Part shown: in pieces, positions 13,634 to 57,231 of the stretch
Layout of the letters: every line of letters begins with the position of its first letter
Position numbering within the stretch: the first letter of the stretch is position 1
Virus record (IMG/VR): IMGVR_UViG_3300042398_001452
DNA length: 64,000 nucleotides
Direction: 5' to 3' (one strand)
Origin: a virus
Taxonomy: Duplodnaviria; Heunggongvirae; Uroviricota; Caudoviricetes
Position numbers and translations under genes: made by a program
Notes under the pieces: model-generated
Seen by the model: only the letters and a program-made list of their open reading frames with translations
Database searches by the model: none
What the model was told of the DNA's origin: nothing

Positions 13634-14137
13634 ATGAAACACATTAAATTATTTGAGGGATTCATGAAGAATCCAAATCCTTATAAGGACATAACAGAAA
13701 GAGGTGAGTCTGTTTTCTTATTCCACGAAGAAGATTCTATTTGGTTTGGAATATTTCCAGATAATGTTGCGGAGGATCTTAAATATGCTTCTGAAGATTA
13801 TATGAAACATGCAATATCTAAAGGTTTAGGAGAGGAATATTACGATGTTTTTGTTGACCGAAGAGAAGGACTAGCTTATGTTGAATGGGAAGGTAAAAAT
13901 GGATGGAATGCTTGTACCCCAGGAGAAATTGATGTAAACGATTATAATTATGTTATGATGCCAGATGGAACTGAAATAGAAATTAATCCATCTGCTAAAT
14001 ATTCATCTCTTCCTTTATTTGCTTTAGAAAGAGGAATGATAACACACTATCAAGGAAACCACGGTAATGAACCTATGACTGTTCGAGAATACATGGATCA
14101 TTTAGAAAGTGGAAAATCAGATTGGTATTCTATGTAA
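13634..14137 (+). CDS. leader-family protein (N-terminus MKHIKLFEGF), 167 aa
   Basis: Carries the conserved N-terminal decapeptide shared by 17 proteins in this window. EPM upstream. Confidence 0.65.
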   Translation: MKHIKLFEGFMKNPNPYKDITERGESVFLFHEEDSIWFGIFPDNVAEDLKYASEDYMKHAISKGLGEEYYDVFVDRREGLAYVEWEGKNGWNACTPGEIDVNDYNYVMMPDGTEIEINPSAKYSSLPLFALERGMITHYQGNHGNEPMTVREYMDHLESGKSDWYSM

Positions 14138-19100: not shown

Positions 19101-19571
19101 TCAATTACCTGTCCAGATAGGAATTATTTTAGCATCTGAAGGTATTATTCTCTTGTATTTATCTGAAATCTGTAGGATATCATATTTAGATATTAGTCTT
19201 TGAAGTGGTGTAGATTCGCCTGATTTATTTCTTCTAATCACATTAGAGAAAGCTTTCTCTGGATCATTTTCGAAGTACATTATTTCTAGTTCAGCCCCGG
19301 AATCTTTTATTTTTTTTATTGTTGAATATGGAATATCTGTATATAATCTATAATCAAACATTATAGGACCATCTGATATTATCTGATTTTCCATTCCTGA
19401 ATTTTCTAATGCTTTTCTAATCTGATTATCATCATAGATCTTATAATCCATATTAGGGTTTTCCATCTGTATTTTCTTAGCAAGATATGATTTACCAGAT
19501 CCAGGAAGACCTAGTATTAGTATAGTTTTCTTTTTGTTGGTGTATTCTTCAAAAAGTTTAATCCTTCTCAT
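19101..19571 (-). CDS. P-loop NTPase / nucleotide-kinase-like protein with N-terminal leader MRRIKLFEEY (156 aa)
   Basis: Walker A motif ILILGLPGSGKSYLAKK directly follows the leader. Confidence 0.7.
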   Translation of the reverse strand: MRRIKLFEEYTNKKKTILILGLPGSGKSYLAKKIQMENPNMDYKIYDDNQIRKALENSGMENQIISDGPIMFDYRLYTDIPYSTIKKIKDSGAELEIMYFENDPEKAFSNVIRRNKSGESTPLQRLISKYDILQISDKYKRIIPSDAKIIPIWTGN

Positions 19572-19746: not shown

Positions 19747-20862
19747 ATGAAACACCTTAAGTTATTTGAAGATTTTAATCCTTATGAGTATGAGCTTCCT
19801 AATTTCAGGGTAAGCCTAGTAAGTTCGGGCATGACTAACGGTAAATACCTTTTTAGCCTAGTTGATGGAGACGCCAATTCTTATTGGGGGATTTTCGATT
19901 TGGAAGGTCTTAAAGTCCTAGAGGATGAGATGAACACCATATGTGTCTTAGAAGAATTATTCAATGCTATAGCATACAACAAAAAAAATGATCCTGTTGT
20001 GTGGGCTACGAAAAAATGGACTAAACTTGTTATCAATAAGGTTCCAGAAGATTCTAAGCTTATTGTTCTTCTGAATAAGCTTGTGGTTGATAAAGACATA
20101 ATGGCGGATTGGGGGATTAGAAAAAATCTTAATATCTTAGGTGCTTTTCACGAATACATTGCAGATGTTGTCTCTGACGAGAATGAAATTCCAGAAGTTG
20201 ATTTTGGATTTTCGAAGGACGAGGGCATAATAATCGTTCCCGCTGAGGTGAACACTTTATACCATGAAGGAAACCATCTAGGAAGCTTCGATGACACCAC
20301 AGGGAAAATCATTAAAGACAAGAGAGATGAAAATTACTTTGCCATTGATTATGAAAACCCTTTAATGGTTAAACACGATAATAATTACACAGATCCTAAA
20401 TTCTGGAATGCTCCTCCTGATAACAAAGAATGGATTACTACCCCTATAAATTTTGATGACATAGAGCCTTATATGCCATCCATCATAGAAGGAGGAGCTC
20501 CTAAAGCATTTTTAAAGGTCATAGAAAAGTATAAGGGCATAAGAGACAGAAAGCCAACCATAAGAAAAATACCAACATTCATCGAAGGGGTTGAGAAGGG
20601 ACTTCTTAGGGATTATGGAAATGATTTAGAATTTAAGAAATTCCTAGAAGAGACCGATTACATTCAATTGGTGGACCAGATAGAGAAAGAAGAGACTAAA
20701 TTACGAAGAGAAAGATCACCGGAGAAATTATTGATCCTCAAATCCATATTGGATAAAAAAGAGGTGCTTATTAATTCATGGGAAGATAGACTTCCTATTG
20801 ACTTTATTAAAATGGAGAGAAGCGGTCTGGGTATAACCAGATTTAATTACGGTCTTAAATAG
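19747..20862 (+). CDS. leader-family protein (MKHLKLFEDF), 371 aa
   Basis: Track ORF. Leader decapeptide at N-terminus. C-terminus ..GITRFNYGLK loosely resembles the shared ..RF tail. Confidence 0.7.
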   Translation: MKHLKLFEDFNPYEYELPNFRVSLVSSGMTNGKYLFSLVDGDANSYWGIFDLEGLKVLEDEMNTICVLEELFNAIAYNKKNDPVVWATKKWTKLVINKVPEDSKLIVLLNKLVVDKDIMADWGIRKNLNILGAFHEYIADVVSDENEIPEVDFGFSKDEGIIIVPAEVNTLYHEGNHLGSFDDTTGKIIKDKRDENYFAIDYENPLMVKHDNNYTDPKFWNAPPDNKEWITTPINFDDIEPYMPSIIEGGAPKAFLKVIEKYKGIRDRKPTIRKIPTFIEGVEKGLLRDYGNDLEFKKFLEETDYIQLVDQIEKEETKLRRERSPEKLLILKSILDKKEVLINSWEDRLPIDFIKMERSGLGITRFNYGLK

Positions 20863-24388: not shown

Positions 24389-24898
24389 TTGGAAGATAAG
24401 GTTTATGCTATATTAAAATTAGAGGTAGAGAGTTCGTATCAAATGGTATATCTTTATTTCTATTGTTATGTTGCTAATAGTGAGGAAGATATAGTTAAGA
24501 ATTTCAGAGACGATCTTTATTCCTATTTTGACAGGATACCTAGGGGATTAAGTAAAATATCAGATTTTAAGGAAAAGCTTGGCTCCTATAATTATGATCT
24601 TAATGAAGAGACAGGAGATGTAGAGTTAATTGATTTTAAAATATATTCAGATCCTTTGGAGTTTTACATAGATATGAAGGGGTGCTGGACGATTGAGAAA
24701 AATCCAGAAGAAACAAAAAATGAAAGGGACCTTGAGGATATAAATTTCATCTATAGAGATCTAACAGTTAATGATGATTATAATACAGCTAGAGTTATTA
24801 TGGTTAGGGATTTAGCCGATAATATATTCCAGTATAATATGGATTTTATGACCGAGTATCGTGTATCTTACGATCCTTATAAAATCCCCTCTAAATAG
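24389..24898 (+). CDS. hypothetical protein (169 aa)
   Basis: Track ORF. Confidence 0.55.
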   Translation: MEDKVYAILKLEVESSYQMVYLYFYCYVANSEEDIVKNFRDDLYSYFDRIPRGLSKISDFKEKLGSYNYDLNEETGDVELIDFKIYSDPLEFYIDMKGCWTIEKNPEETKNERDLEDINFIYRDLTVNDDYNTARVIMVRDLADNIFQYNMDFMTEYRVSYDPYKIPSK

Positions 24899-25490
24899 AT
24901 TTCAATCTATCTATTGGAAATTTATCAACAGAATATTTAGTTATAATAGCATTAGAGATATTTAGTCCTAATTCGTTATATATGTCTGTGATGTCTGTGG
25001 TTTTTGTGATAATCATTCCAGATTCTTGTGCTTTCTTCATTATGAAGTGATTGTATATTCTAGATCTTCTATCATCGCCTAGTGATTCTGATTTTGCAAC
25101 CACTATAATAGATATTAAGTTTCCGCCTTTACTTCTCTCTTTAGCCCATTCCTTTACCGCCCACCACACACTGCCCATAACATCTTGCATATTGTTTCTT
25201 CCTGTGAGCGAGTCTGAGTATTCTGTATCGGACGGATCAGCTTTAGACGAGAAATGTATTTCTAGAGTTACTGTGTTGTCTTCCCATCTTCTTACCAGAA
25301 TAAAAACTTTATATGGAGCTCCGTCTATTTCAAATTCATAGGTCATATCTTCATCCCTTGCTGGAATTTTGTTTATAACCTTGATGTCTGGGATTGTGTC
25401 CCACATCTCATTAAGAAACTGGTAGTATTTAAGAATTGATCTCATTCTTTTTATATATCGTTGTTTTTGATATATAGATATATGAAACAT
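24891..25490 (-). CDS. hypothetical protein (199 aa; alternative start at 25445 gives 184 aa)
   Basis: Track ORF on the minus strand, convergent with 24389..24898. Confidence 0.55.
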   Translation of the reverse strand: MFHISIYQKQRYIKRMRSILKYYQFLNEMWDTIPDIKVINKIPARDEDMTYEFEIDGAPYKVFILVRRWEDNTVTLEIHFSSKADPSDTEYSDSLTGRNNMQDVMGSVWWAVKEWAKERSKGGNLISIIVVAKSESLGDDRRSRIYNHFIMKKAQESGMIITKTTDITDIYNELGLNISNAIITKYSVDKFPIDRLKSI

Positions 25491-26555
25491 ATTAAATATT
25501 TCTCTGAGATCAATGAATCTAAAGAAGAATCAACAGAGATATTAGATTTTATAAAATCTTCACCAGAGGGTATTGATCTTTCTAGAATAAACGACAGGGG
25601 TACAGATATAAACAATATGTTTGAATTAGTAAGAACAGGGAGGGTATATTGTATTGGATTTGGCTCTAAAACTTATATAGATAAAAATCACAATGGAAAT
25701 TATTGCTGGCAAAGCCTATCTAACGGTAAGATATTTGCTCAAGAGTGCTATTCCACACTAAAAGAATGTATTAGAGAATTTTTTGTTACTGTGGTAAGTA
25801 GACAAATATCAGGAATGTATGGGGTTAAAAAGGAGGAAATGAGAAACTGGGTTTCTTCTAATATTCCTGTCGGTATGGGATTAACTATGTCTGATATAAT
25901 AGAAAAATATAAGGAATTAGAGGGAAAGAAAAAAGTGGATTTCTTAGAACTTTCTAAGGATAGTAGGGCTTTAAATATTATTGTTAATGCTTTTGGTGGA
26001 ATATTTGAAAAGCAACCTTATGATTATGACAGATATGACGAATACACATTAACTTTTAATATTTTTAAACCATTTGGGTTAGATATATGCGAATATGGTG
26101 ATAGAGCAAGACCTATTAGTGTCGTTATTAGAGCTGGTATGAAGGGAAAAAATAGCATTAAATCAGATTGGCACGGTGAGATTGTAAGTTTAGGAGATCA
26201 TGATACCGCTTTAAAATATTTCGATACTTCCTTACCTAAACTTCTAATTAATAAGTTATCAGGTAATAATAATAATGGGTATGGTTATTATATTCAGGGA
26301 GTAGATAATCTTTGTCCAGAATTATTGGAGTTGGTAAAATATATTTTTAGGGGAGATTATGATGTTAATAATAATCTTTCAGATATACTGGATTCATATC
26401 TTTCTAAAATTAAAACAAAAAATCCTATAATTTTTTCATCAGCAATACAATCATTAGAATCTAGTGGTAAATTCCCGGAATTGGTTGATAAGTATATTAA
26501 AAGCGATAAAGCTACTATCAAAGCAGGATCTATTTTAAAAAGATTTGAGCTTTAA
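25482..26555 (+). CDS. leader-family protein (MKHIKYFSEI) with shared C-terminal module (..SAIQSLESSGKFPELVDKYIK..KAGSILKRFEL), 358 aa
   Basis: Track ORF 25461..26555 trimmed to the ATG that begins the leader. The C-terminal about 40 aa align with 9030, 29417 and 31305 ORFs. Confidence 0.7.
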   Translation: MKHIKYFSEINESKEESTEILDFIKSSPEGIDLSRINDRGTDINNMFELVRTGRVYCIGFGSKTYIDKNHNGNYCWQSLSNGKIFAQECYSTLKECIREFFVTVVSRQISGMYGVKKEEMRNWVSSNIPVGMGLTMSDIIEKYKELEGKKKVDFLELSKDSRALNIIVNAFGGIFEKQPYDYDRYDEYTLTFNIFKPFGLDICEYGDRARPISVVIRAGMKGKNSIKSDWHGEIVSLGDHDTALKYFDTSLPKLLINKLSGNNNNGYGYYIQGVDNLCPELLELVKYIFRGDYDVNNNLSDILDSYLSKIKTKNPIIFSSAIQSLESSGKFPELVDKYIKSDKATIKAGSILKRFEL

Positions 26556-27100: not shown

Positions 27101-27913
27101 ATGAAATACATTAAACTATTTGAAGCTTTTTTAGCTAGTGATAATAAATCAACTATAATTTTATTTGGACCTCAAGGAGTGGGAAAAAGCACACTGGCTA
27201 AACAGTTAGGGAACGAGTTAAACATGGGAGTTATTGGCTCAGATGATTTTATAGATCAAGGGAATTGGTCAGCAGAGGAAATATGGAGTAAAGGATGGCA
27301 AGTTAGAAAACAAAATGAATATAAAGGAATGGTTAATTATCTTAATGATAATTTAGGTAAGCCTGTTATATTGGATGTTGGCGGTAGTCATGGAGTATGG
27401 GATGGAAAAATGCTAGAAGATATTATTGGTATGCTAGAGTCATATCCTAATAGATTCTTAATAATACCTTCTGAGAACGAAATAGAAAATCAGGAGTTTT
27501 TAAGAGGAAGATTATTAAAAAGGGAATTAGATATGCACCCTTCCAATATTAAATACTGGGAGGCTATTTTGAAGGGGGATACAAGCTTTGCAAAAGATTT
27601 TGATCACGAAAAAAGAAGTGAATTTTTAGAGAGAATAGAATTAGTAAAAAAAGAAGAAAAATATAGAACTATGGCTATGAATATGCTTAAATCTAGCCAG
27701 AATAGATATAACTCTCTAAAGAGAGGGGTTGAATGGATGGTGTATGATGATTCACCTGAACAAAAATTCGATTTTGAAATGAATAAGATGGAAGATTATT
27801 CAAAGTTCTTTATAGACACAATGAAAAATTCAGGGATAGCTAATCATATAATTTACAATAAAGAAAAGTCCTCTGATTTATTAGTTGGTGAAATAACAAA
27901 ATTATTAAAATGA
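27101..27913 (+). CDS. P-loop kinase-like protein with leader MKYIKLFEAF (270 aa)
   Basis: Walker A IILFGPQGVGKSTLAKQ after the leader. First 39 nt of this gene are identical to those of 27915..28637. Confidence 0.7.
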   Translation: MKYIKLFEAFLASDNKSTIILFGPQGVGKSTLAKQLGNELNMGVIGSDDFIDQGNWSAEEIWSKGWQVRKQNEYKGMVNYLNDNLGKPVILDVGGSHGVWDGKMLEDIIGMLESYPNRFLIIPSENEIENQEFLRGRLLKRELDMHPSNIKYWEAILKGDTSFAKDFDHEKRSEFLERIELVKKEEKYRTMAMNMLKSSQNRYNSLKRGVEWMVYDDSPEQKFDFEMNKMEDYSKFFIDTMKNSGIANHIIYNKEKSSDLLVGEITKLLK

Positions 27914-27914
27914 T

Positions 27915-28637
27915 ATGAAATACATTAAACTATTTGAAGCTTTTTTAGCTAAAAAAAATCCAAGGTATAAAAAACCGGAATATGAATTTAAGGAGTTCTA
28001 TAGGGTTTTTAAGGGTTATCCCGAGTTAAGAGCTCTTCTCCCTTCTGATATTGATCAGGATGTATTTTCTATTAAATCAGACGGATTTGGTGGGGAACCT
28101 AAATGGTTAGATAAACACTTAGATCCACCTAGTAAGTCTGACGAGATCACTACTGATGCTCTTTTAAGAATAGCAGAAGAGATGGATCCAAGATTTGTTC
28201 CTCTTATTCTTTGGTGTTGTGATTTATTTGAAAAGGGTGAGATGGAGAAGATGACTTTAGATTATATACGTCCAAGATTAAGATCTGATTTTAAGAATCA
28301 CGATTGGGCGGAGTTAGAAAAAAATCCGGATCTTTTAGACCAATGCGAGAAAGAATACAATAAAGCAATTGATGTAGGATTAGATGATGATATTCTTAAT
28401 AATACAGAAGGACTTGTACAAGAGTATCCTGATATCACTATATGGAAGGCTCAATTCTGGACTTATGTTAAGGGATCAATAGCACATTTTAATCGTGTCG
28501 AAGCCAGCGGAGGTGAATTACCTTGTACTCAGTTTATATTGTATAGAGGTAAATATTACACTGTGGGTGGTAGAAGAAGAATGTTCTGGCACTTCTATAA
28601 TCATGTGGATCCTACTGTATGGATAATGGAATTATAA
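27915..28637 (+). CDS. leader-family protein (MKYIKLFEAF), 240 aa
   Basis: Leader is identical at DNA level to the preceding gene. Rest of the protein is unrelated. Confidence 0.65.
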   Translation: MKYIKLFEAFLAKKNPRYKKPEYEFKEFYRVFKGYPELRALLPSDIDQDVFSIKSDGFGGEPKWLDKHLDPPSKSDEITTDALLRIAEEMDPRFVPLILWCCDLFEKGEMEKMTLDYIRPRLRSDFKNHDWAELEKNPDLLDQCEKEYNKAIDVGLDDDILNNTEGLVQEYPDITIWKAQFWTYVKGSIAHFNRVEASGGELPCTQFILYRGKYYTVGGRRRMFWHFYNHVDPTVWIMEL

Positions 28638-28685: not shown

Positions 28686-29414
28686 ATGAAACATCTTAGA
28701 CCATTTAACGAAATAAACGAGCATTTAGGCGGAAAAGATATTAGTAGTATCGATAGAATGAAAAATAAATACCCTAAAGGTATAGAGATTCCTAAAGAAA
28801 TAAAAGCTACAGGATCTGGTAATTTCTCTATTGGCGTTGATTCGTTAGATCCTGAGTCTAAAAAATTCATGGAAATTGTCGAGATTATTAATGATCTATT
28901 ACAAAACTCAAAAGGAGATGTTAAAGTAAAAGTTAGCGCTGGTGCTTCTGCTGTAGGGCAGGGAAGATATGATAATCAGGGTCTTGCTGAAAGAAGAAGA
29001 GATAACACAATAGAGGCTCTTAAAAAATATCCTTTTATAGATCCTAAGAGAATTGTTTTTATACCAGGAAAAGCAACAGTCGGAAAATCAACAGTTAAAG
29101 GATCTAAAGAAGCTGAGGGTGAACAATATGTTATCGTTGAAGTTTCAGGAACTGGTAGTTTAAATGTTCCTATTACCGGTGTTCAGGGTGATAATACTAA
29201 TGTATATAGACCTGAGTTATTTAAATTTGACGGGAAGAAAAATAACAGCGATGACGACGACTTTGATTTTACTAAAACAAAGATAAAAAGAATATGTTTA
29301 CAGCTTCCTGAGCCTTATGTAGATAAATTTATCGAGATGCTAGGAAAATTCAGAAGGGATAATGGATTTGAAAAGATCCCTTATGGAATCTATGATATAG
29401 AGCCTAAGAAATAA
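28686..29414 (+). CDS. leader-family protein (MKHLRPFNEI) with OmpA-like peptidoglycan-binding-type motif, 242 aa
   Basis: VKVSAGASAVGQGRYDNQGLAERRRDNTIEAL resembles the OmpA_C core (G-x-T/A-D..G...YN..LS..RA..V). Confidence 0.55.
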   Translation: MKHLRPFNEINEHLGGKDISSIDRMKNKYPKGIEIPKEIKATGSGNFSIGVDSLDPESKKFMEIVEIINDLLQNSKGDVKVKVSAGASAVGQGRYDNQGLAERRRDNTIEALKKYPFIDPKRIVFIPGKATVGKSTVKGSKEAEGEQYVIVEVSGTGSLNVPITGVQGDNTNVYRPELFKFDGKKNNSDDDDFDFTKTKIKRICLQLPEPYVDKFIEMLGKFRRDNGFEKIPYGIYDIEPKK

Positions 29415-29416
29415 TA

Positions 29417-29989
29417 ATGAAATATATTAAGATTTTTGAATATTTCCCGCCTGATACAAAATTTGAGGTGGTTGAAAAATATCCAATGAATATTGAGAAG
29501 TTTTTTATCGATGCACCTTTTCAGGATTTTATTTCATTTATAAGTAAAAATTACCCAAAGAGTAGTTTTCTACATGCTTTTGTTAATTCTACCTGGGATT
29601 CCTACAATAAGGAAAAAATATTTATTTTATTGAGTCAATCTACACTTTGGTCTAAAAACGGTGTAATAGAATCTGAGCCAGTTGAAAGACTATTAGGTAT
29701 TACTATGTCTTACGATGGTAATATAAAAGCATCCGGATGGGACAATAATAAATTAGCAACAGACGAAGAACTAAATCAGGCTTCATCCGTTATATCTAAT
29801 AGTGGTTTAATGGATGAAAAACTTAAAGAGTATTTAGAAGAAGTAAGATCTAAAGATGCAGTATTATTTTCCCGTACTATTAACAAATTAGATACCAATG
29901 GAATTTTTCAAAATATTTCTAAATATTTTAAAGAGAAATATCCAGCTTTTTTTAAAGCAGGAAGTATACTGTCAAGATTTTCGAACTAA
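29417..29989 (+). CDS. leader-family protein (MKYIKIFEYF) with shared C-terminal module (..RTINKLDTNGIFQNISKYFKEKYPAFFKAGSILSRFSN), 190 aa
   Basis: Conserved at both termini. Overlapping start/stop with the upstream gene. Confidence 0.65.
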   Translation: MKYIKIFEYFPPDTKFEVVEKYPMNIEKFFIDAPFQDFISFISKNYPKSSFLHAFVNSTWDSYNKEKIFILLSQSTLWSKNGVIESEPVERLLGITMSYDGNIKASGWDNNKLATDEELNQASSVISNSGLMDEKLKEYLEEVRSKDAVLFSRTINKLDTNGIFQNISKYFKEKYPAFFKAGSILSRFSN

Positions 29990-30534
29990 TTTTTAAAAAA
30001 TTCTATGGTTGCCCATCTAGAGGGGGATTCTGCTAAAATCATTCTTCTTGATTTCCAATGATTTATATTCCCTAATTTTTTATCAGCAACTCCCCATATG
30101 TAATCATAGTTTAAATTGCTAACCCAATCTTTTAGCATGTTGCCAAATCCCATGTTTCTGTATTCAGGGTATACTGAAAGTGCTATCCCTTGTAATCCTT
30201 TCCCGTATAGATTCTCCATATATATTTTGGTTTCATCTGGCGGAAAATCTTTTATTTCGTCCATTTTTATTTGTTCTATAAAAGTGGTTGCAGATTTTTC
30301 GTTTAATAAATAACAACCCACTATTTTTTCATTTATAGAAAGGTATATCGATAACCCGTTTGAAAGTCTTGGCTGTATTCTTTTTCTTAATGATTCTTTG
30401 CTATCTTCTAAAAATCCAAAGGATGAATATAAAACATCTATAACATCTTCTTCCTTATCTGGTGTAATCACATCTATTAGGACATCATTTTTTGATTCAG
30501 AAATAAATGAATAGAAAGAATTTAGGTATTTCAT
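29986..30534 (-). CDS. GNAT-family acetyltransferase-like protein (about 183 aa from ATG at 30534; track ORF extends to 30645)
   Basis: IVGCYLL...GIALSVYPEYRNMGFGNMLKD resembles GNAT motif A (Q/R-x-x-G-x-G/A). Only minus-strand gene in this plus-strand run. Confidence 0.5.
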   Translation of the reverse strand: MKYLNSFYSFISESKNDVLIDVITPDKEEDVIDVLYSSFGFLEDSKESLRKRIQPRLSNGLSIYLSINEKIVGCYLLNEKSATTFIEQIKMDEIKDFPPDETKIYMENLYGKGLQGIALSVYPEYRNMGFGNMLKDWVSNLNYDYIWGVADKKLGNINHWKSRRMILAESPSRWATIEFFKN

Positions 30535-30573
30535 ATATCTTATATATTCCCAATTATTTAAGATATATAAAGG

Positions 30574-31308
30574 ATGAATCATATTAAGTCTATAGAGGAA
30601 TTCATATTTGAAAAAAAGAATCCTTGTTGGCCGGGATACAAGCAAATAGGAATGAAAAATAAGAACGGTAAAAAAGTTCCTAATTGTGTAAAGGTTAACG
30701 AGCAGCTTTTTTCCGATGCTAGAAAGTTTTCACAAATGTTAGGTGTGGGAAATCAAGATTCTCAGCAAGCCCCGTATGTTAACACTCCTACTGGACCTAT
30801 ACAAACATCAAGAAACGATGAAGCATCCTGTCCTAATAATGATTGTTGGTCACACTTTGGTAAGGAAGCTTTTTGGAATGGCGACAGTAAAATAAATAAT
30901 ATAACAGTACCTAAAATTACAATACAAAAATCACCCACTCTTTTTAAAATAACATACAGTGGACAGGTATCGGGATTTTTATTAAAACATGCTAAAGGAG
31001 GAAAGGGTGATACTATACATCAATTATTAAATGTATTAACTCTAGAATTAAATGAATACCTGAAAGGAGTTTCTGCAAAACCAGATGTAAATAGAATAAA
31101 AATGACAAAATCTGGTAATGTATTGGAGATTGAAGTACCATTGGTTAGTGGGAATGGTAAAAAATATATGATAGCTAGAAGAGGAGGATTAGGTCACGGT
31201 GGTGATTTTACTGGACTTAGAAAATATAAAAAAATGGAGGGTTACGAAGAAGCTGTACATAAAAGCGAGAATCTAACTGAAAAGTTTGTAACTGTGGTTG
31301 TATCATGA
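30574..31308 (+). CDS. leader-family protein (MNHIKSIEEF), 244 aa
   Basis: Track ORF with leader at N-terminus. Confidence 0.65.
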   Translation: MNHIKSIEEFIFEKKNPCWPGYKQIGMKNKNGKKVPNCVKVNEQLFSDARKFSQMLGVGNQDSQQAPYVNTPTGPIQTSRNDEASCPNNDCWSHFGKEAFWNGDSKINNITVPKITIQKSPTLFKITYSGQVSGFLLKHAKGGKGDTIHQLLNVLTLELNEYLKGVSAKPDVNRIKMTKSGNVLEIEVPLVSGNGKKYMIARRGGLGHGGDFTGLRKYKKMEGYEEAVHKSENLTEKFVTVVVS

Positions 31309-32828
31309 GTAGGATAAAAGGATTTAGCAATTTTATGGATGAAGGGATATATTGGGAAACATTAAAAGAATCCTATAGACGTGTTAAAGGTGTAGCTGTT
31401 AAGGTTTTCAATGCTTTTAAGAATGAGGGGAAAGAAACTTCGGAGATGATGAGAGTTTTTAATTACCAGCTGAGAAAGAAATTAAAACTTGATACAAGAG
31501 GAGACAATCCAACACAAGAGGAAATTAATATGGCCTTAGAGCAATTAAAAGATATTCCAAGATTAGCTCCTTATGCAATTATTCTACTTTCATCACCTAT
31601 ACCTTTTTCGAGTGTTATGTATACTGCTTTAGGAGTATATCTAAAGAGGATAAGCGGGGGATATATAAATCTTCTACCAGGATCTTTCAATAATATATTT
31701 AATGATCCTATTAAGGACGAAAAAATAGATGAAAAAAATATGAAATTTTTAAAATACTTCCATTTATTTGAATCGAGTAATTGGAAATTTACTTTTCCTA
31801 AAACAGATTCTGAATTGAACTCTATGCTAGAAGGACCCGCTGGAAAAAGCCTAAGGGAAATAAAGCAATTTCCTGATGAAATGAGATATGGTACTCCTTC
31901 AATTAGTCAAGGAAAAAGTATACAAATTTGGTCAGGAGCGGGTTACAATCTTATAGCTTCACTTCAAGGAAATATAGTATATGGAACAATGAGAGTATAT
32001 CCTTCAGTGATGCCAGTTCACCAAAGCTTAGAGATACTTATTGACTTTCTAACAATTTATCTTTTCTGTATATCTAAAAGAATTACTTATCATTCAGTGG
32101 AGGAATTTGTTTATTTAGGTAAGCCTCTTAGTTTATCAATATACAATAAGTGTATTCCTAGACCTAAACAATTCGAGGTAATAATTGGAATTGCTAAAAA
32201 ATATAACGGGAATTCTAATATTGAATCCATTATATCTAAAATAAAATCTGATTCTGATAGCAATGTACCATTTAGCCAGGAAACCTTAAATAAGAGTAGG
32301 GCCTATAGATTTTTCGATGAGGTATTTAAATTTAGTATAGGAGATGATAATTCAGATTTTTATCAGATAAATGGCGAGTATTTTGTTCCCTTCGGTATAA
32401 AGGGGACAGGTCGCGATTATAACAGGGGTATGGTTATATACATTCCTAAGAATAAATTTAATTATAAAAAGGAAGATAATGCTATAAAATTTATAGATAA
32501 ACAAATAATAGATAAGGTAAGAGAAAATTTAAGATATAACTATCGGACTCTTAATTCAGATGAAAATGGAGAACTTATTAAAAATCTGACCGAAGCTTTA
32601 TTAGAAGTTTATAATAGTGGAACGGAATTATTATATAGTGGTGGTGATTTATATAGTAGAATAAGAGATATATTAGATTCTGTAAGATTAAAAAATCCGG
32701 TATTATTCTCTGAATTTTTACAAGGACTATCCAATATAGCTGAATTTAAAGAACTAGCAGATGAATATATCGAAAAATATCAATCTTCTTTCAGAAGTGG
32801 TAATATATTAAGTAGATTTAGAAAGTAA
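31305..32828 (+). CDS. large leader-family protein (MSRIKGFSNF) with shared C-terminal module (..FRSGNILSRFRK), 507 aa
   Basis: Conserved at both termini. C-terminal ..SEFLQGLSNIAEFKELADEYIEKYQSSFRSGNILSRFRK aligns with the other tails. Confidence 0.7.
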   Translation: MSRIKGFSNFMDEGIYWETLKESYRRVKGVAVKVFNAFKNEGKETSEMMRVFNYQLRKKLKLDTRGDNPTQEEINMALEQLKDIPRLAPYAIILLSSPIPFSSVMYTALGVYLKRISGGYINLLPGSFNNIFNDPIKDEKIDEKNMKFLKYFHLFESSNWKFTFPKTDSELNSMLEGPAGKSLREIKQFPDEMRYGTPSISQGKSIQIWSGAGYNLIASLQGNIVYGTMRVYPSVMPVHQSLEILIDFLTIYLFCISKRITYHSVEEFVYLGKPLSLSIYNKCIPRPKQFEVIIGIAKKYNGNSNIESIISKIKSDSDSNVPFSQETLNKSRAYRFFDEVFKFSIGDDNSDFYQINGEYFVPFGIKGTGRDYNRGMVIYIPKNKFNYKKEDNAIKFIDKQIIDKVRENLRYNYRTLNSDENGELIKNLTEALLEVYNSGTELLYSGGDLYSRIRDILDSVRLKNPVLFSEFLQGLSNIAEFKELADEYIEKYQSSFRSGNILSRFRK

Positions 32829-32837: not shown

Positions 32838-33410
32838 ATGGTAAGATTATTAAAATTTGAATCTTTTCTAAATGAATCATCAAATTCTGTGATAGATCTA
32901 GTTAAGGATTTAGCTATAAGATTACATGGAGATCAGAAGAGAAAATATAGCGGTGATCCTTATTACACACATCTCTTTAGAGTTTCCGATACTGTTAGAG
33001 AATACGGAGGCGATGATTCTATGATTATGGCAGCCTTGTTACACGATGTTATAGAAGATACACCAACAACAGACGAGGAGCTTATCTTAGAATTAGAAAC
33101 AATAGTAGATCCACAAATGGCTAGGGACATTGTTAATTTAGTTGTTGAATTAACTGATGTGTATACGAAGGAAAATTTTCCAGATTTAAACAGAAGAGCT
33201 AGAAAAGAAATGGAAGCCAAAAGACTTGGAGAGATTTCTTCTAGAGCACAAACTATAAAATATGCAGATCTTTTAGATAACGGTGAGGATATAATGAAGA
33301 ATGATCCCTCGTTTGGTAGGGTTTATATCAAGGAGAAAGAAAGAATACTTAATTATATGAACTTTGGCGATAGGACATTATATAATAAGTGCTTGGATTC
33401 AATATATTAG
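32838..33410 (+). CDS. HD-domain (p)ppGpp-hydrolase-like protein (small alarmone hydrolase-like) with leader MVRLLKFESF, 190 aa
   Basis: LHGDQKRKYSGDPYYTHLFRVSDTV...MIMAALLHDVIEDT matches the Rel/SpoT HD hydrolase core (H..Q.R.SG.PY..H...VA......D....AALLHDv.EDT). Confidence 0.75.
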   Translation: MVRLLKFESFLNESSNSVIDLVKDLAIRLHGDQKRKYSGDPYYTHLFRVSDTVREYGGDDSMIMAALLHDVIEDTPTTDEELILELETIVDPQMARDIVNLVVELTDVYTKENFPDLNRRARKEMEAKRLGEISSRAQTIKYADLLDNGEDIMKNDPSFGRVYIKEKERILNYMNFGDRTLYNKCLDSIY

Positions 33411-34621: not shown

Positions 34622-34828
34622 GTGAATAAAATTATGGGTTTTAACGAAGATTTTTTTTATCATGTGTATAATGAAGTTCATGAGAAAGATATTTCTAATG
34701 AGTTTTATAAACAGCTGGACAAAATGAAGTATCAGGATAAGCATAAACATAAAACTGTAAAAGAACAATGGGAATATGCTTATTTAAAAATTATCAATAA
34801 TAAAAATGAAGCACATAAAACTATTTGA
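34622..34828 (+). CDS. hypothetical protein (68 aa)
   Basis: Track ORF. End overlaps the start of the next gene. Confidence 0.4.
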   Translation: MNKIMGFNEDFFYHVYNEVHEKDISNEFYKQLDKMKYQDKHKHKTVKEQWEYAYLKIINNKNEAHKTI

Positions 34829-35309
34829 AAACTTTGATTCGATTAACGAGTCAGAATTTATTGCGGGAGACTATAAGATGTCAGCAACAAAGGACGGAGA
34901 AATACAAGTTGTTGACTCTGCTAATAATAAAACTTATATCTACCTTGTTAGCGCAGGTATGGTTGGTATAAAGGTTAAGGATTTCCCCGAAGGAAATTCT
35001 ATATTAGTTACCGCTTTAGGTAAAAGTATAAAAAGCCCTTTGTCTAAGGACGGATCAACTATAAAAGCAATTAAGGATAATATAGGAAAATCAAAAATAA
35101 AATTTGAACTTCCTGCTGCTTCACTTACTTTAAGCTGTAAATCAGGTTGTGATAAAGGAGCAGAGAACGTTGCAAATATTAAAATATCTAAAGAGGAATT
35201 TGATATCGATTTAGATGATATTATAGATACAGCAAAAGATGCAGGTCACAATATTATTAAAGCAGTTGAAGGCGGTGCAGAGAAACTTAAATCGCTCCTT
35301 AAGTGGTAA
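34806..35309 (+). CDS. leader-family protein (MKHIKLFENF), 167 aa
   Basis: Track ORF with leader at N-terminus. Confidence 0.65.
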   Translation: MKHIKLFENFDSINESEFIAGDYKMSATKDGEIQVVDSANNKTYIYLVSAGMVGIKVKDFPEGNSILVTALGKSIKSPLSKDGSTIKAIKDNIGKSKIKFELPAASLTLSCKSGCDKGAENVANIKISKEEFDIDLDDIIDTAKDAGHNIIKAVEGGAEKLKSLLKW

Positions 35310-44516: not shown

Positions 44517-45179
44517 ATGAGAGCTATTAAGACATTTGAGAATTTTTCTCCTGATAATTATTTATGGAACGATGCTTCTTTTTGGATAGAGGAACTATAT
44601 CCAGAGGAGATATGCTTCCTTTCGATCTATTCAAAATATATAGATGATTTAAAAACAAAAAAAAATAACGAGTCACCTTTATTTAAGGTAAAACTTGAAT
44701 CGCCTTCTGAGGTAGATTTAGAACTGAATCATGATGATGGAGACGAAGCTTCAACTGGTTTTGAAATGTTTTATAGTATTCCTGCTAAAAAAGGCGAGGC
44801 CACTCTATCATTTGAAGTGACAGCTTCTGGTCATTTTACTCCAGTAAGAAGTTATGGATATTATGATCCAGAGGAGGGTGGAGAACCTATATTAGATGAT
44901 ATAAATATAGAATCCATATATTATCTAGATTCGGAAGAGAATTTAGAGATTGATTTTTCTTATACTTATAATTTTAGCTCAGAATTTATAACAGAAAAGA
45001 TGCTAATGGATATCATGGTTTTTGTTGCAGAAGATCGAATGGTATACGAGGAATCAAGGGTACAAGCTGATCTCCCTTCAATTCCACAAGGTCTTTTAGA
45101 TAAATGCGAAAAAATTAGAAAAAAAAATCCTTCTATATCAAAGGGATATGATATAATTAATAGATTTAATCTTAAATAG
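44517..45179 (+). CDS. leader-family protein (MRAIKTFENF), C-terminus ..GYDIINRFNLK, about 220 aa
   Basis: Track ORF 44475..45179 trimmed to the ATG that begins the leader. Confidence 0.6.
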   Translation: MRAIKTFENFSPDNYLWNDASFWIEELYPEEICFLSIYSKYIDDLKTKKNNESPLFKVKLESPSEVDLELNHDDGDEASTGFEMFYSIPAKKGEATLSFEVTASGHFTPVRSYGYYDPEEGGEPILDDINIESIYYLDSEENLEIDFSYTYNFSSEFITEKMLMDIMVFVAEDRMVYEESRVQADLPSIPQGLLDKCEKIRKKNPSISKGYDIINRFNLK

Positions 45180-45615: not shown

Positions 45616-46017
45616 ATGATGAGATATATAAAACTTTTTGAATCGTTTGATCAAGTAAATGAAGCCGAAGGAATTTCGGAAGATTTAATATTCGATTGGC
45701 TACCTTTTGATGATCAGATAAATAATCCAGTAAATTCTAGAGTACCTATTGAAGTTAAATATTCTGAACTTGCTCAAGTTTGTAATGAGATGGGAAAAGA
45801 CTTTAATGGTGTTGGTCTTTATATAGCTCACCAGAAACTAAGTGATGGCGGATTTGTTAGATTCGTAGTAGGAAACCCTTCACCAGTACTTTTTGACGTA
45901 GCAGTATTTGACAGAGAATTTAAGAAGTCTTCAGAACAAAAAGGCATATCAGCTGATAAATTTAATTTCAAATCATATTTAAGAGGAACAGAAATTCTTA
46001 ATAGATTCAAATTTTAA
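45616..46017 (+). CDS. leader-family protein (MMRYIKLFESF), C-terminus ..GTEILNRFKF, 133 aa
   Basis: Leader and an ..NRF tail. Terminator at 46039. Confidence 0.65.
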   Translation: MMRYIKLFESFDQVNEAEGISEDLIFDWLPFDDQINNPVNSRVPIEVKYSELAQVCNEMGKDFNGVGLYIAHQKLSDGGFVRFVVGNPSPVLFDVAVFDREFKKSSEQKGISADKFNFKSYLRGTEILNRFKF

Positions 46018-48147: not shown

Positions 48148-49410
48148 CTATTTCTTTTTAAAAAAATCCTTCCAATCAACTTCCACTGGGGAATATCCAG
48201 AAGCTACTAATTTTCTAACTTCCTGTAGAGCTTTATCTGTAGAGCTTCCTTTTTTGTAAAGTCTATCCCAAGATCCGTCTTTTTTCCTACTCTGATTGTT
48301 CATTAGATCTATAGCAGTTACAGCTCCCTGTGCATTTGGATTTTTACCAACTAATTTTTTAATAGATTCCTTTTGCTTCCATAATGTTTCCTGTATAATA
48401 ACCGTCCACTTATTAGCAACAATAGTTTCTGCATTTTTTATAACATATTTAGGATCTTTATATTCTTCAGGTACTGCTATATCAAGTCTGTCGCCTATGT
48501 TCATTATTTTTACTCCGGTTTTTCTTTCTTCGTATCTTCCAGAATAATATGACTTTATTTTTTTAAATCCTAATGTTGGTAATACTCCAGTAATAGCACG
48601 CATATCGAAAAGGGTAGATCTAACCGTATGTTGTGTACAGTTAGAAAAAAGAAGATTGTAACTTTTATTGCTAGCTCCTATTACTGCAGTTGGTACATCC
48701 TTAACCTTTTTTTTCGCCCAATCACCAACTATTTTTTTAAAGTTGTCGTATTCTTTTTTGTTCATTTTTATTACGACTGATTGTTTTTTGAGATGATTTA
48801 ATTCGGAGCATACTTGATTATACATTGTTTGAGAATACTCTGGGTATATCTTTTCCCCTGTTTTAGTATCACCAACACCACCTAAAAGAACTTTATCTAT
48901 ATCAGCTTTCTCGGGCATTGCATTTATTTGATATTTAGGCTCTTTTAAAGACCAAGCTTGTAGGTGACCGAATCCTCCTCCTGCATCTTTTTGGCCCATC
49001 TCGAAGTAATCAACTACTACCGGATACTGGAACTCTTTTTTAGCATACGCCTTAATTTCTTGTTCCATTGGCATATCAGTTTCTGTGTTGTACCAATTAC
49101 CTCCCCAAACAAAATAATTACATCCTTGTTTTTTAGCTGCTAAGAAAGCTTCCTTTCTAGTTTTTTTGGATGACATATTACAAGATTTCCCTTGCTTTAT
49201 TGAATTGTAATAGAAATCTTTTAATATTCCTTTTCCCCAATTAAAAGAATCGTCGCCTTTCTTTTTTAAATTGGAGACGGTTTTTTTCCCTGTATCCAAA
49301 AGCTTATTTGCAAAATCTTTATAATCATCAAAATTCCAATATTCATTTATATCTTCACTAGATGATTCACTGATATTATTCCAATCTTTAAAAGATTTAA
49401 GATGCTTCAT
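48148..49410 (-). CDS. leader-family protein (MKHLKSFKDW), 420 aa
   Basis: Track ORF on the minus strand with leader at N-terminus. Confidence 0.7.
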   Translation of the reverse strand: MKHLKSFKDWNNISESSSEDINEYWNFDDYKDFANKLLDTGKKTVSNLKKKGDDSFNWGKGILKDFYYNSIKQGKSCNMSSKKTRKEAFLAAKKQGCNYFVWGGNWYNTETDMPMEQEIKAYAKKEFQYPVVVDYFEMGQKDAGGGFGHLQAWSLKEPKYQINAMPEKADIDKVLLGGVGDTKTGEKIYPEYSQTMYNQVCSELNHLKKQSVVIKMNKKEYDNFKKIVGDWAKKKVKDVPTAVIGASNKSYNLLFSNCTQHTVRSTLFDMRAITGVLPTLGFKKIKSYYSGRYEERKTGVKIMNIGDRLDIAVPEEYKDPKYVIKNAETIVANKWTVIIQETLWKQKESIKKLVGKNPNAQGAVTAIDLMNNQSRKKDGSWDRLYKKGSSTDKALQEVRKLVASGYSPVEVDWKDFFKKK

Positions 49411-51102: not shown

Positions 51103-51840
51103 ATGAGGCATCTAAAAAGTATAGAAGAATTTAAAAAAGTAAATGAGCAGTTATTTAAAAGCGAAGGATCTTTTTTTAATAAGATGTTAAATCTAGGAGA
51201 CACAAAGAATGATAATACAGCATCCGCGGGTGGTACAGGTTCTTCTTCAGGTTCTTCTTCAGGTTCTACTGGAACTATAGACAATAAAGTCGATATATCA
51301 GATTATGGAAAATTCAGTGAGGCTAAGGACAAAAAAGCTCCTTTAGTAGTTGTATATGGTGGAATAGATGTTGGTGGTAAGAAAAGTGGCGTATATATGT
51401 ATGACTATTTAAATACCCTAGGAAATTCAGTAAATTTGTTTGTAGCTAAAGATGCTAGTATTAACGGAAAATCTGCATATACATCTTTAAAAAATAAATT
51501 ATCAGATCTATCAATAACACCATCTAAAAAGATATTATATCTTTTCTCCGGAGGATGGAGTCCAGGTAAAGATCTATTGAGCTCTGTTTCTGCATCTGAA
51601 TTTGATACAATATACCTAGTAGATATATGGATGGGTAAAGATGCTTCTTCTAGTTTTTATAAAAAATTAGCAGCAGACAACAGAAGCAAAGTTAAGTATT
51701 TCTACACTAGCTTTGGTGCTAATGATAAATCTGCTAGCGATGCAATTATTAAGACAGTAAACACTTCTAAATTAAATGGAAATAACGATCATATGTCTAC
51801 TAACACAGATGCAGTTTCAGATTTAAAAGGAATAATATAA
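51103..51840 (+). CDS. leader-family protein (MRHLKSIEEFKKVNEQLF) with Gly/Ser linker, about 245 aa
   Basis: Track ORF 51025..51840 trimmed to the leader ATG. Shares EQLF after the leader with the next gene. Confidence 0.6.
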   Translation: MRHLKSIEEFKKVNEQLFKSEGSFFNKMLNLGDTKNDNTASAGGTGSSSGSSSGSTGTIDNKVDISDYGKFSEAKDKKAPLVVVYGGIDVGGKKSGVYMYDYLNTLGNSVNLFVAKDASINGKSAYTSLKNKLSDLSITPSKKILYLFSGGWSPGKDLLSSVSASEFDTIYLVDIWMGKDASSSFYKKLAADNRSKVKYFYTSFGANDKSASDAIIKTVNTSKLNGNNDHMSTNTDAVSDLKGII

Positions 51841-51849
51841 TATAAAAAA

Positions 51850-52626
51850 ATGAAGCATTTAAAAAATATAAAGGAGTTCGGATTGGTTTACGAGCAGCTA
51901 TTTAGTCAAGAGCTTGCAGCATTTAATAAACTTATGGGTATATCTGTTGAAGAAACAGGAATGGCTGAGCCAAATATGATTTCAGCTGAGAACCCTTCCG
52001 GATTAGGAACTGCTCCAGTATCTGTTGTTAAACTGAACACTAATCAATTAGATAATTACGGATCTACTGTTGGGATAACAGAGAAGGGAGACTCTTCCAG
52101 CTTAAACCAGCCATCAAGGGGTCCTTTAGGAAATATAGTAAACTCAGCTTATGCAAATTTAAATGTTTCAACAAGAAGAATCCCTGGAACAATGGGGGGA
52201 AATCTTGGATGTGCAGCTGCTGTTTCTATTATATTTTACAGAGCTACTGGATATGCAATAGCAGGATCAGGAGCTATAACTTTGGGAACTTCAAGTATGT
52301 GGAGCCACATGGATGCAGAAAGCAAAAAATCCGATGGAGTTTGGCAAAAAATAACTAATTGGAAAACAGATTCTCAGCCTGGTGATATAATATTAACATC
52401 TAGAGCAACTAAAGCAGGACACGTGGGAGTTGTAGTAGAGGGAGGAAATATTATATCTAATTCTTCTGGAGGGTTTCAAGGAGACAGAAAAGGTCAAATA
52501 GAATTAAATTATAATCTAAATACTTGGCAAAGCGTAGCAAACAGAAATCCTACACAAACAGCATCTTTTAGATATAGAGGTCCTTACAAATCAACATGGG
52601 GTAAAGAACAAGCTCCGATAGCATAA
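51850..52626 (+). CDS. CHAP-domain (cysteine/histidine amidohydrolase-peptidase) protein with leader MKHLKNIKEF, 258 aa
   Basis: GNLGCAAAVSIIFYRATG (catalytic Cys context) followed by GDIILTSRATKAGHVGVVVEG (catalytic His context), matching the CHAP/NlpC-P60 topology. Confidence 0.7.
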   Translation: MKHLKNIKEFGLVYEQLFSQELAAFNKLMGISVEETGMAEPNMISAENPSGLGTAPVSVVKLNTNQLDNYGSTVGITEKGDSSSLNQPSRGPLGNIVNSAYANLNVSTRRIPGTMGGNLGCAAAVSIIFYRATGYAIAGSGAITLGTSSMWSHMDAESKKSDGVWQKITNWKTDSQPGDIILTSRATKAGHVGVVVEGGNIISNSSGGFQGDRKGQIELNYNLNTWQSVANRNPTQTASFRYRGPYKSTWGKEQAPIA

Positions 52627-56658: not shown

Positions 56659-57231
56659 ATGGCAGAAACAGTTAATTTACCCAATCCAAAAGACCGGAAT
56701 CTTTTCTTCAATAGACAAGTAAACCAAAGCTCGGTAAATGATCTTTGTAAGAATCTAGTAGATATTTCAGAGCATGACCAGTATATCAAAAAGATATATG
56801 AAGCACATGATCTTATATACGTACCAAAGCCTATTAAAATATATGTAGATTCTTATGGTGGATACGTATATCAATGTCTAGGTCTTATAGGGATAATGGA
56901 AACATGTAAAACCGAGATTCATACAATTGTAACTGGATGTGCTATATCTTGCGGATTTTTAATAGCCATATCAGGACACAAAAGATTCGGATATGATAGA
57001 TCAACTTATTTATATCATCAGGTAGCAGGAGGAGCTTTTGGAAAGGTTAAGGATATAGAAGAGGAACTTTTAGAGATCTTAAGATTACAAGAAACTACAG
57101 AGGATATAACCCTAAGAAAAACTTCAATAAGTAAAAAAATGCTAGAGAAAGTTTATAAAGGCAAAAAAGACTGGTATATGGATAGTAGAGAGGCATTAAA
57201 ATTAGGTGTAATAGACGAAATAATAAAATAA
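56659..57231 (+). CDS. ClpP-family serine protease, 190 aa
   Basis: IYVDSYGGYVYQCLGLIGIME...IVTGCAISCGFLIAISG...YLYHQVAGGAFG follows the ClpP pattern (nSpGG....aIyD.m......T...G.AaSmg..ll..G.....p.s.imiHQp.gg). Confidence 0.75.
   Translation: MAETVNLPNPKDRNLFFNRQVNQSSVNDLCKNLVDISEHDQYIKKIYEAHDLIYVPKPIKIYVDSYGGYVYQCLGLIGIMETCKTEIHTIVTGCAISCGFLIAISGHKRFGYDRSTYLYHQVAGGAFGKVKDIEEELLEILRLQETTEDITLRKTSISKKMLEKVYKGKKDWYMDSREALKLGVIDEIIK

Follow-up and report, generated by a model that had tools for sequence, protein, structure and literature searches.

Why would a phage place, in front of an enzyme predicted to degrade alarmones, a short peptide that recurs at the start of many unrelated proteins? 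The question is raised by a gene at 32838..33410 (plus strand) within a 64,000-nucleotide stretch of tailed-phage DNA (IMG/VR record IMGVR_UViG_3300042398_001452; Caudoviricetes), called the window throughout. The DNA comes from a large, uncultured phage, probably one that infects Bacteroidota and builds a T4-like head. The gene encodes a 190-amino acid HD-domain protein (the HD protein), the first 13 residues of which are not part of the enzyme; they form a divergent copy of a leader that resembles the capsid-targeting sequence (CTS) of phage T4. A first-pass annotation, made from the letters of the DNA, had proposed that the protein is a leader-tagged alarmone hydrolase that might be injected with the phage genome. 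Here we follow the enzyme, the leader and the head genes of related phages in turn, and weigh packaging into the capsid against other explanations of the leader.

The enzyme behind the leader

The open reading frame (ORF) of the HD protein begins with ATG and has no further in-frame Met until residue 62; it follows the stop of the upstream gene after 9 nt, and its own stop is separated from the next gene by 6 nt. The product contains the Rel/SpoT motif LHGDQKRKYSGDPYYTHLFRV...AALLHDVIEDT and matches the Pfam families HD_4 (PF13328; 45.3 bits vs a cut-off of 27.2, E = 9.7e-12) and HD (PF01966; 34 bits vs 22, E = 3.9e-8) as well as PHROG 990, a ‘metal-dependent phosphohydrolase’ (3.4e-33); as judged from the sequence, the motif and domain matches are well above chance. 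The match to the RelA/SpoT model of NCBIfam (TIGR00691) is limited to model positions 4-118 of 687, which correspond to the hydrolase part. The solved structure most similar in sequence is that of Drosophila Mesh1 (3nqw, 1.7e-11), and further matches include Listeria Lmo0812, human HDDC3/MESH1, bacterial small alarmone hydrolases (SAHs) and a Bacteroides (p)ppApp hydrolase.

In an alignment of 43 homologs (46-87% identity) the residues H30, G31, Q33, R35, K36, Y37, Y42, H45, H69, D70, E73, D74, D144 and N148 are invariant, and in HMMER alignments they fall opposite those residues of Mesh1 that bind metal or form the catalytic ED pair. An AlphaFold2 model built from the same alignment reaches a mean predicted local distance difference test score (pLDDT) of 92.9 and a predicted template modelling score (pTM) of 0.87, and the top 18 Foldseek matches of this model are all Mesh1 or SAH structures with template modelling scores (TM) of 0.53-0.81, the best ones lying at 0.65-0.81. 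The predicted parts of the enzyme are the following:

32925..32972, plus strand: substrate-binding Arg/Lys and first metal-binding His, H30-G-D-Q-K-R35-K36-Y...Y42..H45 (invariance in 43 homologs, Mesh1 alignment)
33042..33059, plus strand: HD metal dyad and ED catalytic pair, H69-D70-V-I-E73-D74 (invariance in 43 homologs, Mesh1 alignment)
33267..33281, plus strand: last metal-binding Asp and conserved Asn, D144-L-L-D-N148 (invariance in 43 homologs, Mesh1 alignment)
32889..33407, plus strand: folded HD domain, residues 18-190, all-helical (pLDDT 93-99; TM 0.74-0.81 to Mesh1)

The Rel/SpoT HD core named in the first-pass annotation is borne out by sequence, invariant catalytic residues and predicted fold. 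The metal-binding His and Asp residues that were to be compared with SpoT and Mesh1 (H45, H69, D70 and D144) are all present, and the HD dyad is not lost. The gene thus very probably encodes a catalytically intact, single-domain SAH of the Mesh1/SpoT type, to which we attribute a predicted activity. Synthetase, TGS and ACT domains are absent from the protein, no toxSAS or RelA_SpoT synthetase gene lies beside it, and the flanking ORFs are without any Pfam domain; because of its single domain and the absence of an adjacent synthetase-type gene we regard the HD protein as a stand-alone SAH. A toxin-antitoxin module was ruled out for want of a synthetase neighbour.

The preferred substrate is a matter independent of the leader. 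The best sequence and structure matches are to metazoan Mesh1, including complexes with NADPH and with 3'-phosphoadenosine 5'-phosphosulfate, the (p)ppApp hydrolase of Bacteroides caccae (7smg) is matched as well, and SAHs neutralise toxSAS toxins of both mechanisms; all this would fit a main substrate other than (p)ppGpp, be it (p)ppApp, the 3'-pyrophosphorylated tRNA that toxSAS enzymes produce, or NADPH, a reported substrate of Mesh1. Yet the HD protein has the SpoT/Mesh1 catalytic residues in full, its sequence does not allow these substrates to be told apart, and we consider such a preference rather unlikely.

Among catalogued phage genomes, 183 carry a stand-alone homolog, in no case more than 43% identical to the HD protein. 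A search of IMG/VR for relatives of the gene returned none that are close (the best being 49% identical), so that the lineage of the window is not represented there, and homologs reside on contigs that are rich in ORFans and reach 551 kb. In published work, two phage SAHs each counteracted all toxSAS toxins tried, and phages have been proposed to evade abortive infection based on alarmones by means of SAHs (Jimmy et al. 2020; PMC7229694); since phage SAHs with this property are already published, the enzyme alone is not new in kind. The suggestion in the first-pass annotation that it could shut down stringent-response or toxSAS defences likewise restates a published idea, and by analogy with the published phage SAHs the HD protein may have an anti-defence role.

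A peptide tag on unrelated proteins

What distinguishes the HD protein from such enzymes is its N-terminus. Residues 1-14 of the AlphaFold2 model are of low confidence and the fold begins near residue 18. The two features of this region are given below; here and in later motifs a slash marks a predicted cut and phi a hydrophobic residue.

32838..32876, plus strand: leader spanning residues 1-13, MVRLLKFESFLNE, a diverged version of MKHIKLFExF[ILV]NE with L4 and F7 at the targeting positions of the T4 CTS (alignment; pLDDT <50-68 for residues 1-14)
32868..32879, plus strand: predicted prohead-protease site L11-N12-E13/S14, that is phi-x-E followed by a small residue (proposed from the motif)

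Compared with the window consensus M-[KR]-[HY]-[IL]-K-x-F-E-x-F-[ILV]-N-E, the HD leader MVRLLKFESFLNE matches at 8 of 13 positions (1, 4, 7, 8 and 10-13), has the usual Ser at position 14 and shows K and L exchanged at positions 5 and 6. The leader is found on the closest relatives of the HD protein only. Around 100 homologs (55-70% identity) are without it, and their start aligns with S15; the predicted cut at E13/S14 would leave an N-terminus one residue longer than theirs. In four further relatives (P0004, P0006, P0007 and P0009) the N-terminal 145 amino acids of the ORF upstream of the HD gene, which we call module A, are joined to the HD domain via an internal leader that still ends L-K-E/S, L-A-E/S or M-N-E/N. 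The fusion of module A to the HD domain at a leader in these proteins suggests that modules are shuffled by recombination at leader sequences. In the HD ORF, codon 18 (32889-32891), where the leaderless homologs begin, is a GTG that could yield a second, untagged isoform.

These observations bear on the idea that the HD leader is a decaying, non-functional remnant of recombination at leader sequences and that the protein is simply a phage SAH. The HD leader is off consensus at 5 of 13 positions, the deletions and fusions of its relatives join module A to the HD domain at the leader, i.e. at recombination junctions, and initiation at codon 18 could give a leaderless product. Against this, the pattern phi4..F7..[FY]10-L-[NK]-E-[SN] is kept in the diverged proteins P0002, P0003 and P0005 while the surrounding residues change, which speaks for purifying selection at precisely those positions that would serve targeting and cleavage, and the leaders inside fusions keep L-K-E/S and L-A-E/S; we judge a remnant improbable. 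A secretion signal was ruled out by inspection, as the leader is charged and without a hydrophobic core.

The same peptide recurs across the window. Between 13.6 and 52.6 kb, some 19 ORFs start M-[KR]-[HY]-[IL]-K-x-F-E-x-F, and in many of them [ILV]-[NS]-E comes next; those other than the HD gene are listed here:

13634..14137, plus strand: leader ORF (MKHIKLFEGF)
19101..19571, minus strand: leader P-loop ORF (MRRIKLFEEY)
19747..20862, plus strand: leader ORF (MKHLKLFEDF)
24891..25445, minus strand: leader ORF (MRSILKYYQFLNE), motif GATATATAA 5 nt upstream of the start
25482..26555, plus strand: leader ORF (MKHIKYFSEINE)
27101..27913, plus strand: leader P-loop kinase/ATPase-like ORF (MKYIKLFEAF)
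27915..28637, plus strand: leader ORF (MKYIKLFEAF)
28686..29414, plus strand: leader ORF (MKHLRPFNEINE)
29417..29989, plus strand: leader ORF (MKYIKIFEYF)
29986..30534, minus strand: leader ORF (MKYLNSFYSFISE), motif AATATATAA 5 nt upstream of the start
30574..31308, plus strand: leader ORF (MNHIKSIEEFIFE)
31305..32828, plus strand: 507-amino acid ORF upstream of the HD gene with leader MSRIKGFSNFMDE, module A (~145 amino acids), internal leader MKFLKYFHLFE from 31740, and module B
34806..35309, plus strand: leader ORF (MKHIKLFENFDSINE)
44517..45179, plus strand: leader ORF (MRAIKTFENF)
45619..46017, plus strand: leader ORF (MRYIKLFESFDQVNE)
48148..49410, minus strand: leader ORF (MKHLKSFKDWNNISE)
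51103..51840, plus strand: leader ORF (MRHLKSIEEFKKVNE)
51850..52626, plus strand: leader ORF (MKHLKNIKEFGLVYE)

The minus-strand genes at 24891-25445 and 29986-30534 most likely begin at the internal Met that gives the leader (MRSILKYYQFLNE and MKYLNSFYSFISE, respectively), and the starts of the longest ORFs at 25490 and 30582 (minus strand) are probably wrong. Upstream of the leader ORFs the DNA shows no conservation, and each leader position is encoded by a mixture of synonymous codons (His as CAC 54% and CAT 46%, Leu as CTA 43% and TTA 45%); selection therefore acts on the leader peptide and not on the DNA. T4-type phages carry promoter-stem-loop cassettes, and an analogous DNA-level cassette was ruled out here, the upstream DNA being unconserved and the codons variable.

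Beyond the window, a degenerate DNA pattern for MKHIKLFExF was run against IMG/VR and the GTDB genomes (596 Gb, bacteria and archaea). It occurs in at least 120 stretches in IMG/VR and in just 5 stretches in GTDB, 3 of them in metagenome-assembled genomes of Bacteroidota, and a longer leader pattern found nothing in the GTDB genomes; the leader is almost absent from bacterial genomes. Approximately 1 Mb of leader-bearing viral loci contains 259 leader ORFs that fall into at least 127 unrelated protein families. Most of these families have no Pfam match, the exceptions including GNATs, a PolX-like protein, a cytidylyltransferase/NMNAT-like protein, an ATP-grasp protein and a weak 2H/Acb1-like match. 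As controls served 46 unrelated phage loci that hold HD homologs, none of which contains a leader ORF. The leader that the first-pass annotation had noticed on the HD protein is accordingly a lineage-wide, virus-restricted peptide tag. Our literature search found the leader string in no paper, and none that linked capsid targeting to Bacteroidota phages.

Proposed capsid targeting and its alternatives

The T4 CTS, MKTYQEFIAE, directs targeting mainly through residues 4 and 7 and processing through residues 8 and 10, and the T4 protease gp21 cuts after L/I-x-E. The leader coincides with the CTS at M1, K2, a hydrophobic residue 4 and F7, and both end with phi-x-E. Among 212 tagged ORFs, position 4 is I, V or L in 211 and position 7 is F or Y in 207, and these are the most conserved hydrophobic positions of the leader; in 125 of the 212, residue 13 is the last of an [ILVM]-x-E motif, and the residue after it is mostly A or S. 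A phi-x-E end within residues 11-18 is present in 70% of tagged vs 22% of control ORFs.

The head genes of leader-bearing phages are of the T4 type. In the locus L089 a gp2-like end protector, a portal, a leader ORF, a Peptidase_S77 (gp21 family, 5e-13), three leader ORFs and a gp23-like capsid gene follow one another, and the capsid propeptide MYANQLINE/AEV...NLNE/SV contains INE/A and LNE/S. Scanning for this capsid N-terminus retrieved 120 further loci; of the 80 loci in which sufficient DNA precedes the capsid gene, 79 have the protease directly upstream of it, and leader ORFs occur in 27 of 118 capsid loci vs none of the 46 control loci. The L089-type capsid protein shares 60% identity with its counterpart in a metagenomic phage of 462 kb and 40% with those of Lak megaphages of Prevotella, and further matches come from phages of Tenacibaculum, Chryseobacterium and Flavobacterium; the lineage is therefore placed among Bacteroidota phages.

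The window itself connects to such head genes by two routes. A same-lineage 59-kb contig that overlaps its 3' end carries, 5.3 kb past the window, a gene whose product has the Pfam domain Gp23; the 92% identical locus L304 ends before reaching this gene. A second relative, L323, has the histidine kinase, response regulator and marker gene in the same order as the window (marker protein 63% identical). At most 10 kb from the marker gene, L323 encodes a T4-type portal (Portal_T4, 1.9e-59) as well as an S80/S77 protease that shares 48% identity with the L089 enzyme.

The protease gene of L089 (3186-5063, minus strand) and 71 other protease genes (major capsid protein loci L180-L297) carry an extension of ~400 amino acids made of 14-residue repeats, Y-[AS]-E-Y-[LV]-A-E-[NK]-..., with one phi-x-E site ([LVI]-[AG]-E) each; the extension is presumably a self-destructing scaffold.

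If tagged proteins share the prohead with such a protease, signs of exposure to it may be sought in their sequences. The scaffold-like C-terminal part of the protease contains 1887 phi-x-E motifs vs 753 expected from composition, and the portal is depleted in them (347 vs 528 expected). In the mature parts of tagged proteins the ratio of observed to expected phi-x-E is 0.91 vs 1.14 in length-matched untagged ORFs of the same loci (p = 3e-9, a value inflated, as are the other enrichment p-values, because the sequences are related to each other), and phi-x-D, phi-x-K and phi-x-Q do not differ between tagged and untagged ORFs. Tagged proteins are also poor in membrane-type segments, which occur in 1 of 175 as compared with 55 of 667 others.

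A further link to the head genes is the motif RATATATAR, which precedes all 43 portal genes, 52 of 53 protease genes and 26 of 53 leader ORFs with an upstream spacer, as compared with 101 of 762 other ORFs. The window holds 24 sites vs 13.4 expected, often ending 3-25 nt before a start codon. The motif is probably a phage promoter element, and the sites that end 3-4 nt before an ATG suggest messenger RNAs (mRNAs) devoid of a 5' leader. One site heads the tightly packed gene string to which the HD gene belongs:

30562..30570, plus strand: motif GATATATAA, 3 nt before the ATG of the gene at 30574

Sites in the window include 13602, 19735, 25469, 26561, 30562, 42484 and 44504, and another copy is situated at 31660 within the 507-amino acid ORF (31305-32828, plus strand). 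A sigma-70 promoter scan around the HD gene gave matches at chance level. The 70 nt upstream of the capsid gene in the capsid loci L180-L297 are without RATATATAR, and many contain a short conserved hairpin-like element (e.g. GGAATATTAATAGTATTCC) followed by AAATGCGAAAAATAA.

The arrangement of promoter and start codon invites the view that the leader is a translation aid for mRNAs without a Shine-Dalgarno sequence or 5' leader in a Bacteroidota host, an AT-rich unstructured start region in which the peptide has no role. The AT-rich codons at all 13 residues, mild codon biases at positions 3, 5 and 6 and the RATATATAR motifs just 3-4 nt before ATG point in this direction. We nevertheless hold it to be quite improbable: the amino acids are kept while synonymous codons are mixed at every position, internal leader copies persist in fusion proteins, the most highly expressed genes (capsid, portal and protease) are without a leader, and both the phi-x-E depletion and the scarcity of membrane proteins among tagged ORFs are left unexplained.

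Taken together, the best-supported reading, and one that we consider reasonably probable, is that the canonical leader is a prohead-targeting propeptide cleaved by the protease. The guess of the first-pass annotation that the leader targets capsids has gained support from the positional match to the T4 CTS, the T4-type head genes, the phi-x-E depletion of the tagged class and the promoter-like motif common to tagged and head genes; the HD protein itself does not share the depletion. That the divergent HD leader is functional as well, so that the hydrolase is packaged and injected, we put forward tentatively, at slightly less than even chances. The proposed course of events would start with an amphipathic N-terminal leader helix, which, by its hydrophobic residue 4 and Phe7, would dock the protein on the prohead scaffolding core. 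The gp21-family prohead protease would then cut after L11-N12-E13/S14, and the mature 20.5-kDa enzyme would be retained in the head and ejected with the DNA into the next host. In that host the enzyme could strip 3'-pyrophosphates of the (p)ppGpp/(p)ppApp type ahead of all phage gene expression, and thereby blunt the stringent response or toxSAS-type abortive infection. For the HD protein, targeting, cleavage, ejection and substrate are all steps that we infer.

Several points weigh against packaging, besides the relatedness of the sequences mentioned above. Concerning the HD protein, its leader is degenerate, with V2, R3, L5 and K6 off consensus; its phi-x-E motifs are not depleted (6 vs 3.8 expected, much like leaderless homologs), several of them standing at constrained positions such as the V-I-E of HDxxED; and it has an isoelectric point (pI) of 4.8, the median of tagged proteins being 5.8, whereas the internal proteins of T4 are basic. 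Within the window the phi-x-E ratios of tagged and untagged ORFs (1.00 vs 1.13) do not differ significantly (p = 0.43), roughly 15% of the genes are tagged, which is many for cargo, and the 64 kb contain neither a prohead protease nor a scaffold gene. The window is linked to a T4-type head only through a neighbouring contig of its lineage, known without its DNA, and through a relative with a 63% identical marker protein. RATATATAR may not be late-specific because it also precedes 13% of untagged genes. Finally, we found no cultured relatives of the leader-bearing loci, and Tenacibaculum phage PTm1, of the same capsid lineage, has no leader in its first 100 kb and for that reason cannot test the packaging idea.

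Some of these points favour an ordinary intracellular phage SAH that is made after infection and carries a leader with a function unrelated to the capsid, for instance as a docking helix for another phage assembly or as a timed-turnover tag for the ClpP homolog encoded at 56659..57231. Most homologs in related huge phages are leaderless, the HD protein is without phi-x-E depletion, and the tagged metabolic-type enzymes (P-loop kinases, NMNAT-like, PolX-like and GNAT proteins) are not classical virion cargo; moreover, the intact Ser-His-Asp triad of the ClpP homolog would allow a role of the leader in regulated proteolysis. Such an enzyme leaves unexplained the avoidance of phi-x-E in tagged proteins, the positional match to the T4 CTS, the tagged genes between protease and capsid genes and the motif common to tagged genes and those for portal and protease, and we regard it as unlikely, if the foremost of the alternatives to packaging. 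The ClpP gene (56659-57231, plus strand; Pfam CLP_protease, 8.4e-28) has Ser, His and Asp at the catalytic positions and sits between a DprA-like gene and a Dda-like helicase, outside any head module; it could be a true ClpP and not a prohead protease.

The broadest form of the packaging interpretation is more tentative still than injection of the HD protein. It holds that MKHIKLFExF[ILV]NE may universally mark proteins for capsid targeting and cleavage in an abundant clade of uncultured, T4-headed Bacteroidota phages, related to Lak megaphages and other huge-phage genomes, with more than 100 injected cargo families. Alarmone hydrolase, 2H/Acb1-like phosphodiesterase, NMNAT-like enzyme, GNATs and P-loop kinases would then be among the members of a preloaded arsenal for counter-defence and takeover.

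Genomic setting and known systems

The window has a GC content of 33%, its genes are nearly all on one strand and are mostly ORFans, and megablast of 20 kb of it against 50,697 phage records gave no match; identical or near-identical copies of the HD gene block exist in several metagenomes. Recognisable genes encode two sigma-70 factors, the Dda-like helicase, the DprA-like protein, the ClpP homolog and an SPFH/Band 7 protein. The sigma factors and other features outside the leader set are these:

5725-6597 and 41416-42279, plus strand: full-length sigma-70 family factors with regions 1.2, 2, 3 and 4 (a third factor is encoded just past the window in the same-lineage contig)
8054-8359, 11083-11394, 14929-15249 and 16281-16583, plus strand: four paralogous ORFs of ~100 amino acids starting MKKEMTAEQKAKKAAANKAYRERKK...NWMELDKFEMS, ~1.3-3.8 kb apart with ORFans between them
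23446-23866, plus strand: transfer-messenger RNA (tmRNA) gene found by ARAGORN, tag peptide ANVYNTEDIMSIPTSLTRVAVAEEAELLMAA
50027-51007, plus strand: deoxyhypusine synthase homolog (1.5e-41)
60731-62729, plus strand: PAS-PAS histidine kinase followed by a response-regulator receiver protein, a synteny kept in dozens of related contigs from metagenomes

Huge phages are known to carry tmRNA genes. The window also encodes a homolog of S-adenosylmethionine (AdoMet) decarboxylase (6.4e-27), which, like the deoxyhypusine synthase homolog, belongs to polyamine/hypusine-type metabolism.

Phage alarmone hydrolases and the T4 CTS were both already known; what is new is their combination in a widespread uncultured phage lineage, in which unusually many and diverse proteins bear one and the same leader. 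If the leader directs packaging, enzymes that erase (p)ppGpp/(p)ppApp immune or stress signals would act at DNA entry, before phage transcription, a timing that matters against abortive-infection systems. Injected proteins would then be predictable from metagenomes, amounting to a catalogue of candidate anti-defence factors that includes those of phages never grown, and the leader would be a portable tag for loading foreign proteins into Bacteroidota phages, relatives of the gut megaphages among them. Otherwise we are left with one more phage SAH and a striking, unexplained virus-specific N-terminal motif.

As an enzyme, the HD protein has its closest structural counterparts in Mesh1 (Drosophila CG11900, human HDDC3), with which it shares fold (TM 0.65-0.81), metal-binding and ED residues and size, and likewise in bacterial SAHs such as Corynebacterium glutamicum RelH, Leptospira SAH and Pseudomonas aeruginosa SAH; identity to these proteins is 19-27%, and the HD protein differs in being viral and in its extra N-terminal extension of 13-17 residues. 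The SAHs of Salmonella phages PVP-SE1 (PbcSpo) and SSU5 (PaSpo) are single-domain RelA/SpoT-type hydrolases too, from lytic phage and without a neighbouring toxSAS gene, and the published proposal of an abortive-infection bypass applies equally to the HD protein (PMC7229694). They are, however, devoid of an N-terminal leader, and the HD protein is at most 43% identical to any catalogued phage homolog. ATfaRel, the SAH antitoxin of a type IV toxSAS system of Cellulomonas marina, is the same type of enzyme and the detoxifying chemistry would be the same, whereas the HD gene is not part of a toxin-antitoxin operon and has no adjacent synthetase-domain gene.

As a candidate packaging system, the tagged proteins invite comparison with those of other large phages. 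phiKZ, 201phi2-1 and SPN3US have dozens of head-internal proteins with propeptides cut after Glu by a gp21-related S80 protease (PMC9026906, PMC5694885); in these phages, which belong to an unrelated lineage, the propeptides are long, share no common leader and carry an S/A-x-E motif. The T4 CTS cargo comes closer, with a short N-terminal leader common to otherwise unrelated, fast-evolving proteins that have been described as diverse anti-defence proteins, and the leader-bearing phages possess gp20-, gp21- and gp23-type head genes as T4 does. The leader described here, known from sequence, is 13 instead of 10 residues long and of another sequence (LFE plus [ILV]NE), and the protease of these phages, which infect Bacteroidota, is fused to a scaffold-like repeat region. 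Where T4 tags a handful of small and basic internal proteins, the Bacteroidota phages tag at least 127 families, ~15% of the genes in the window, and their putative cargo is mostly acidic or neutral and includes enzymes.

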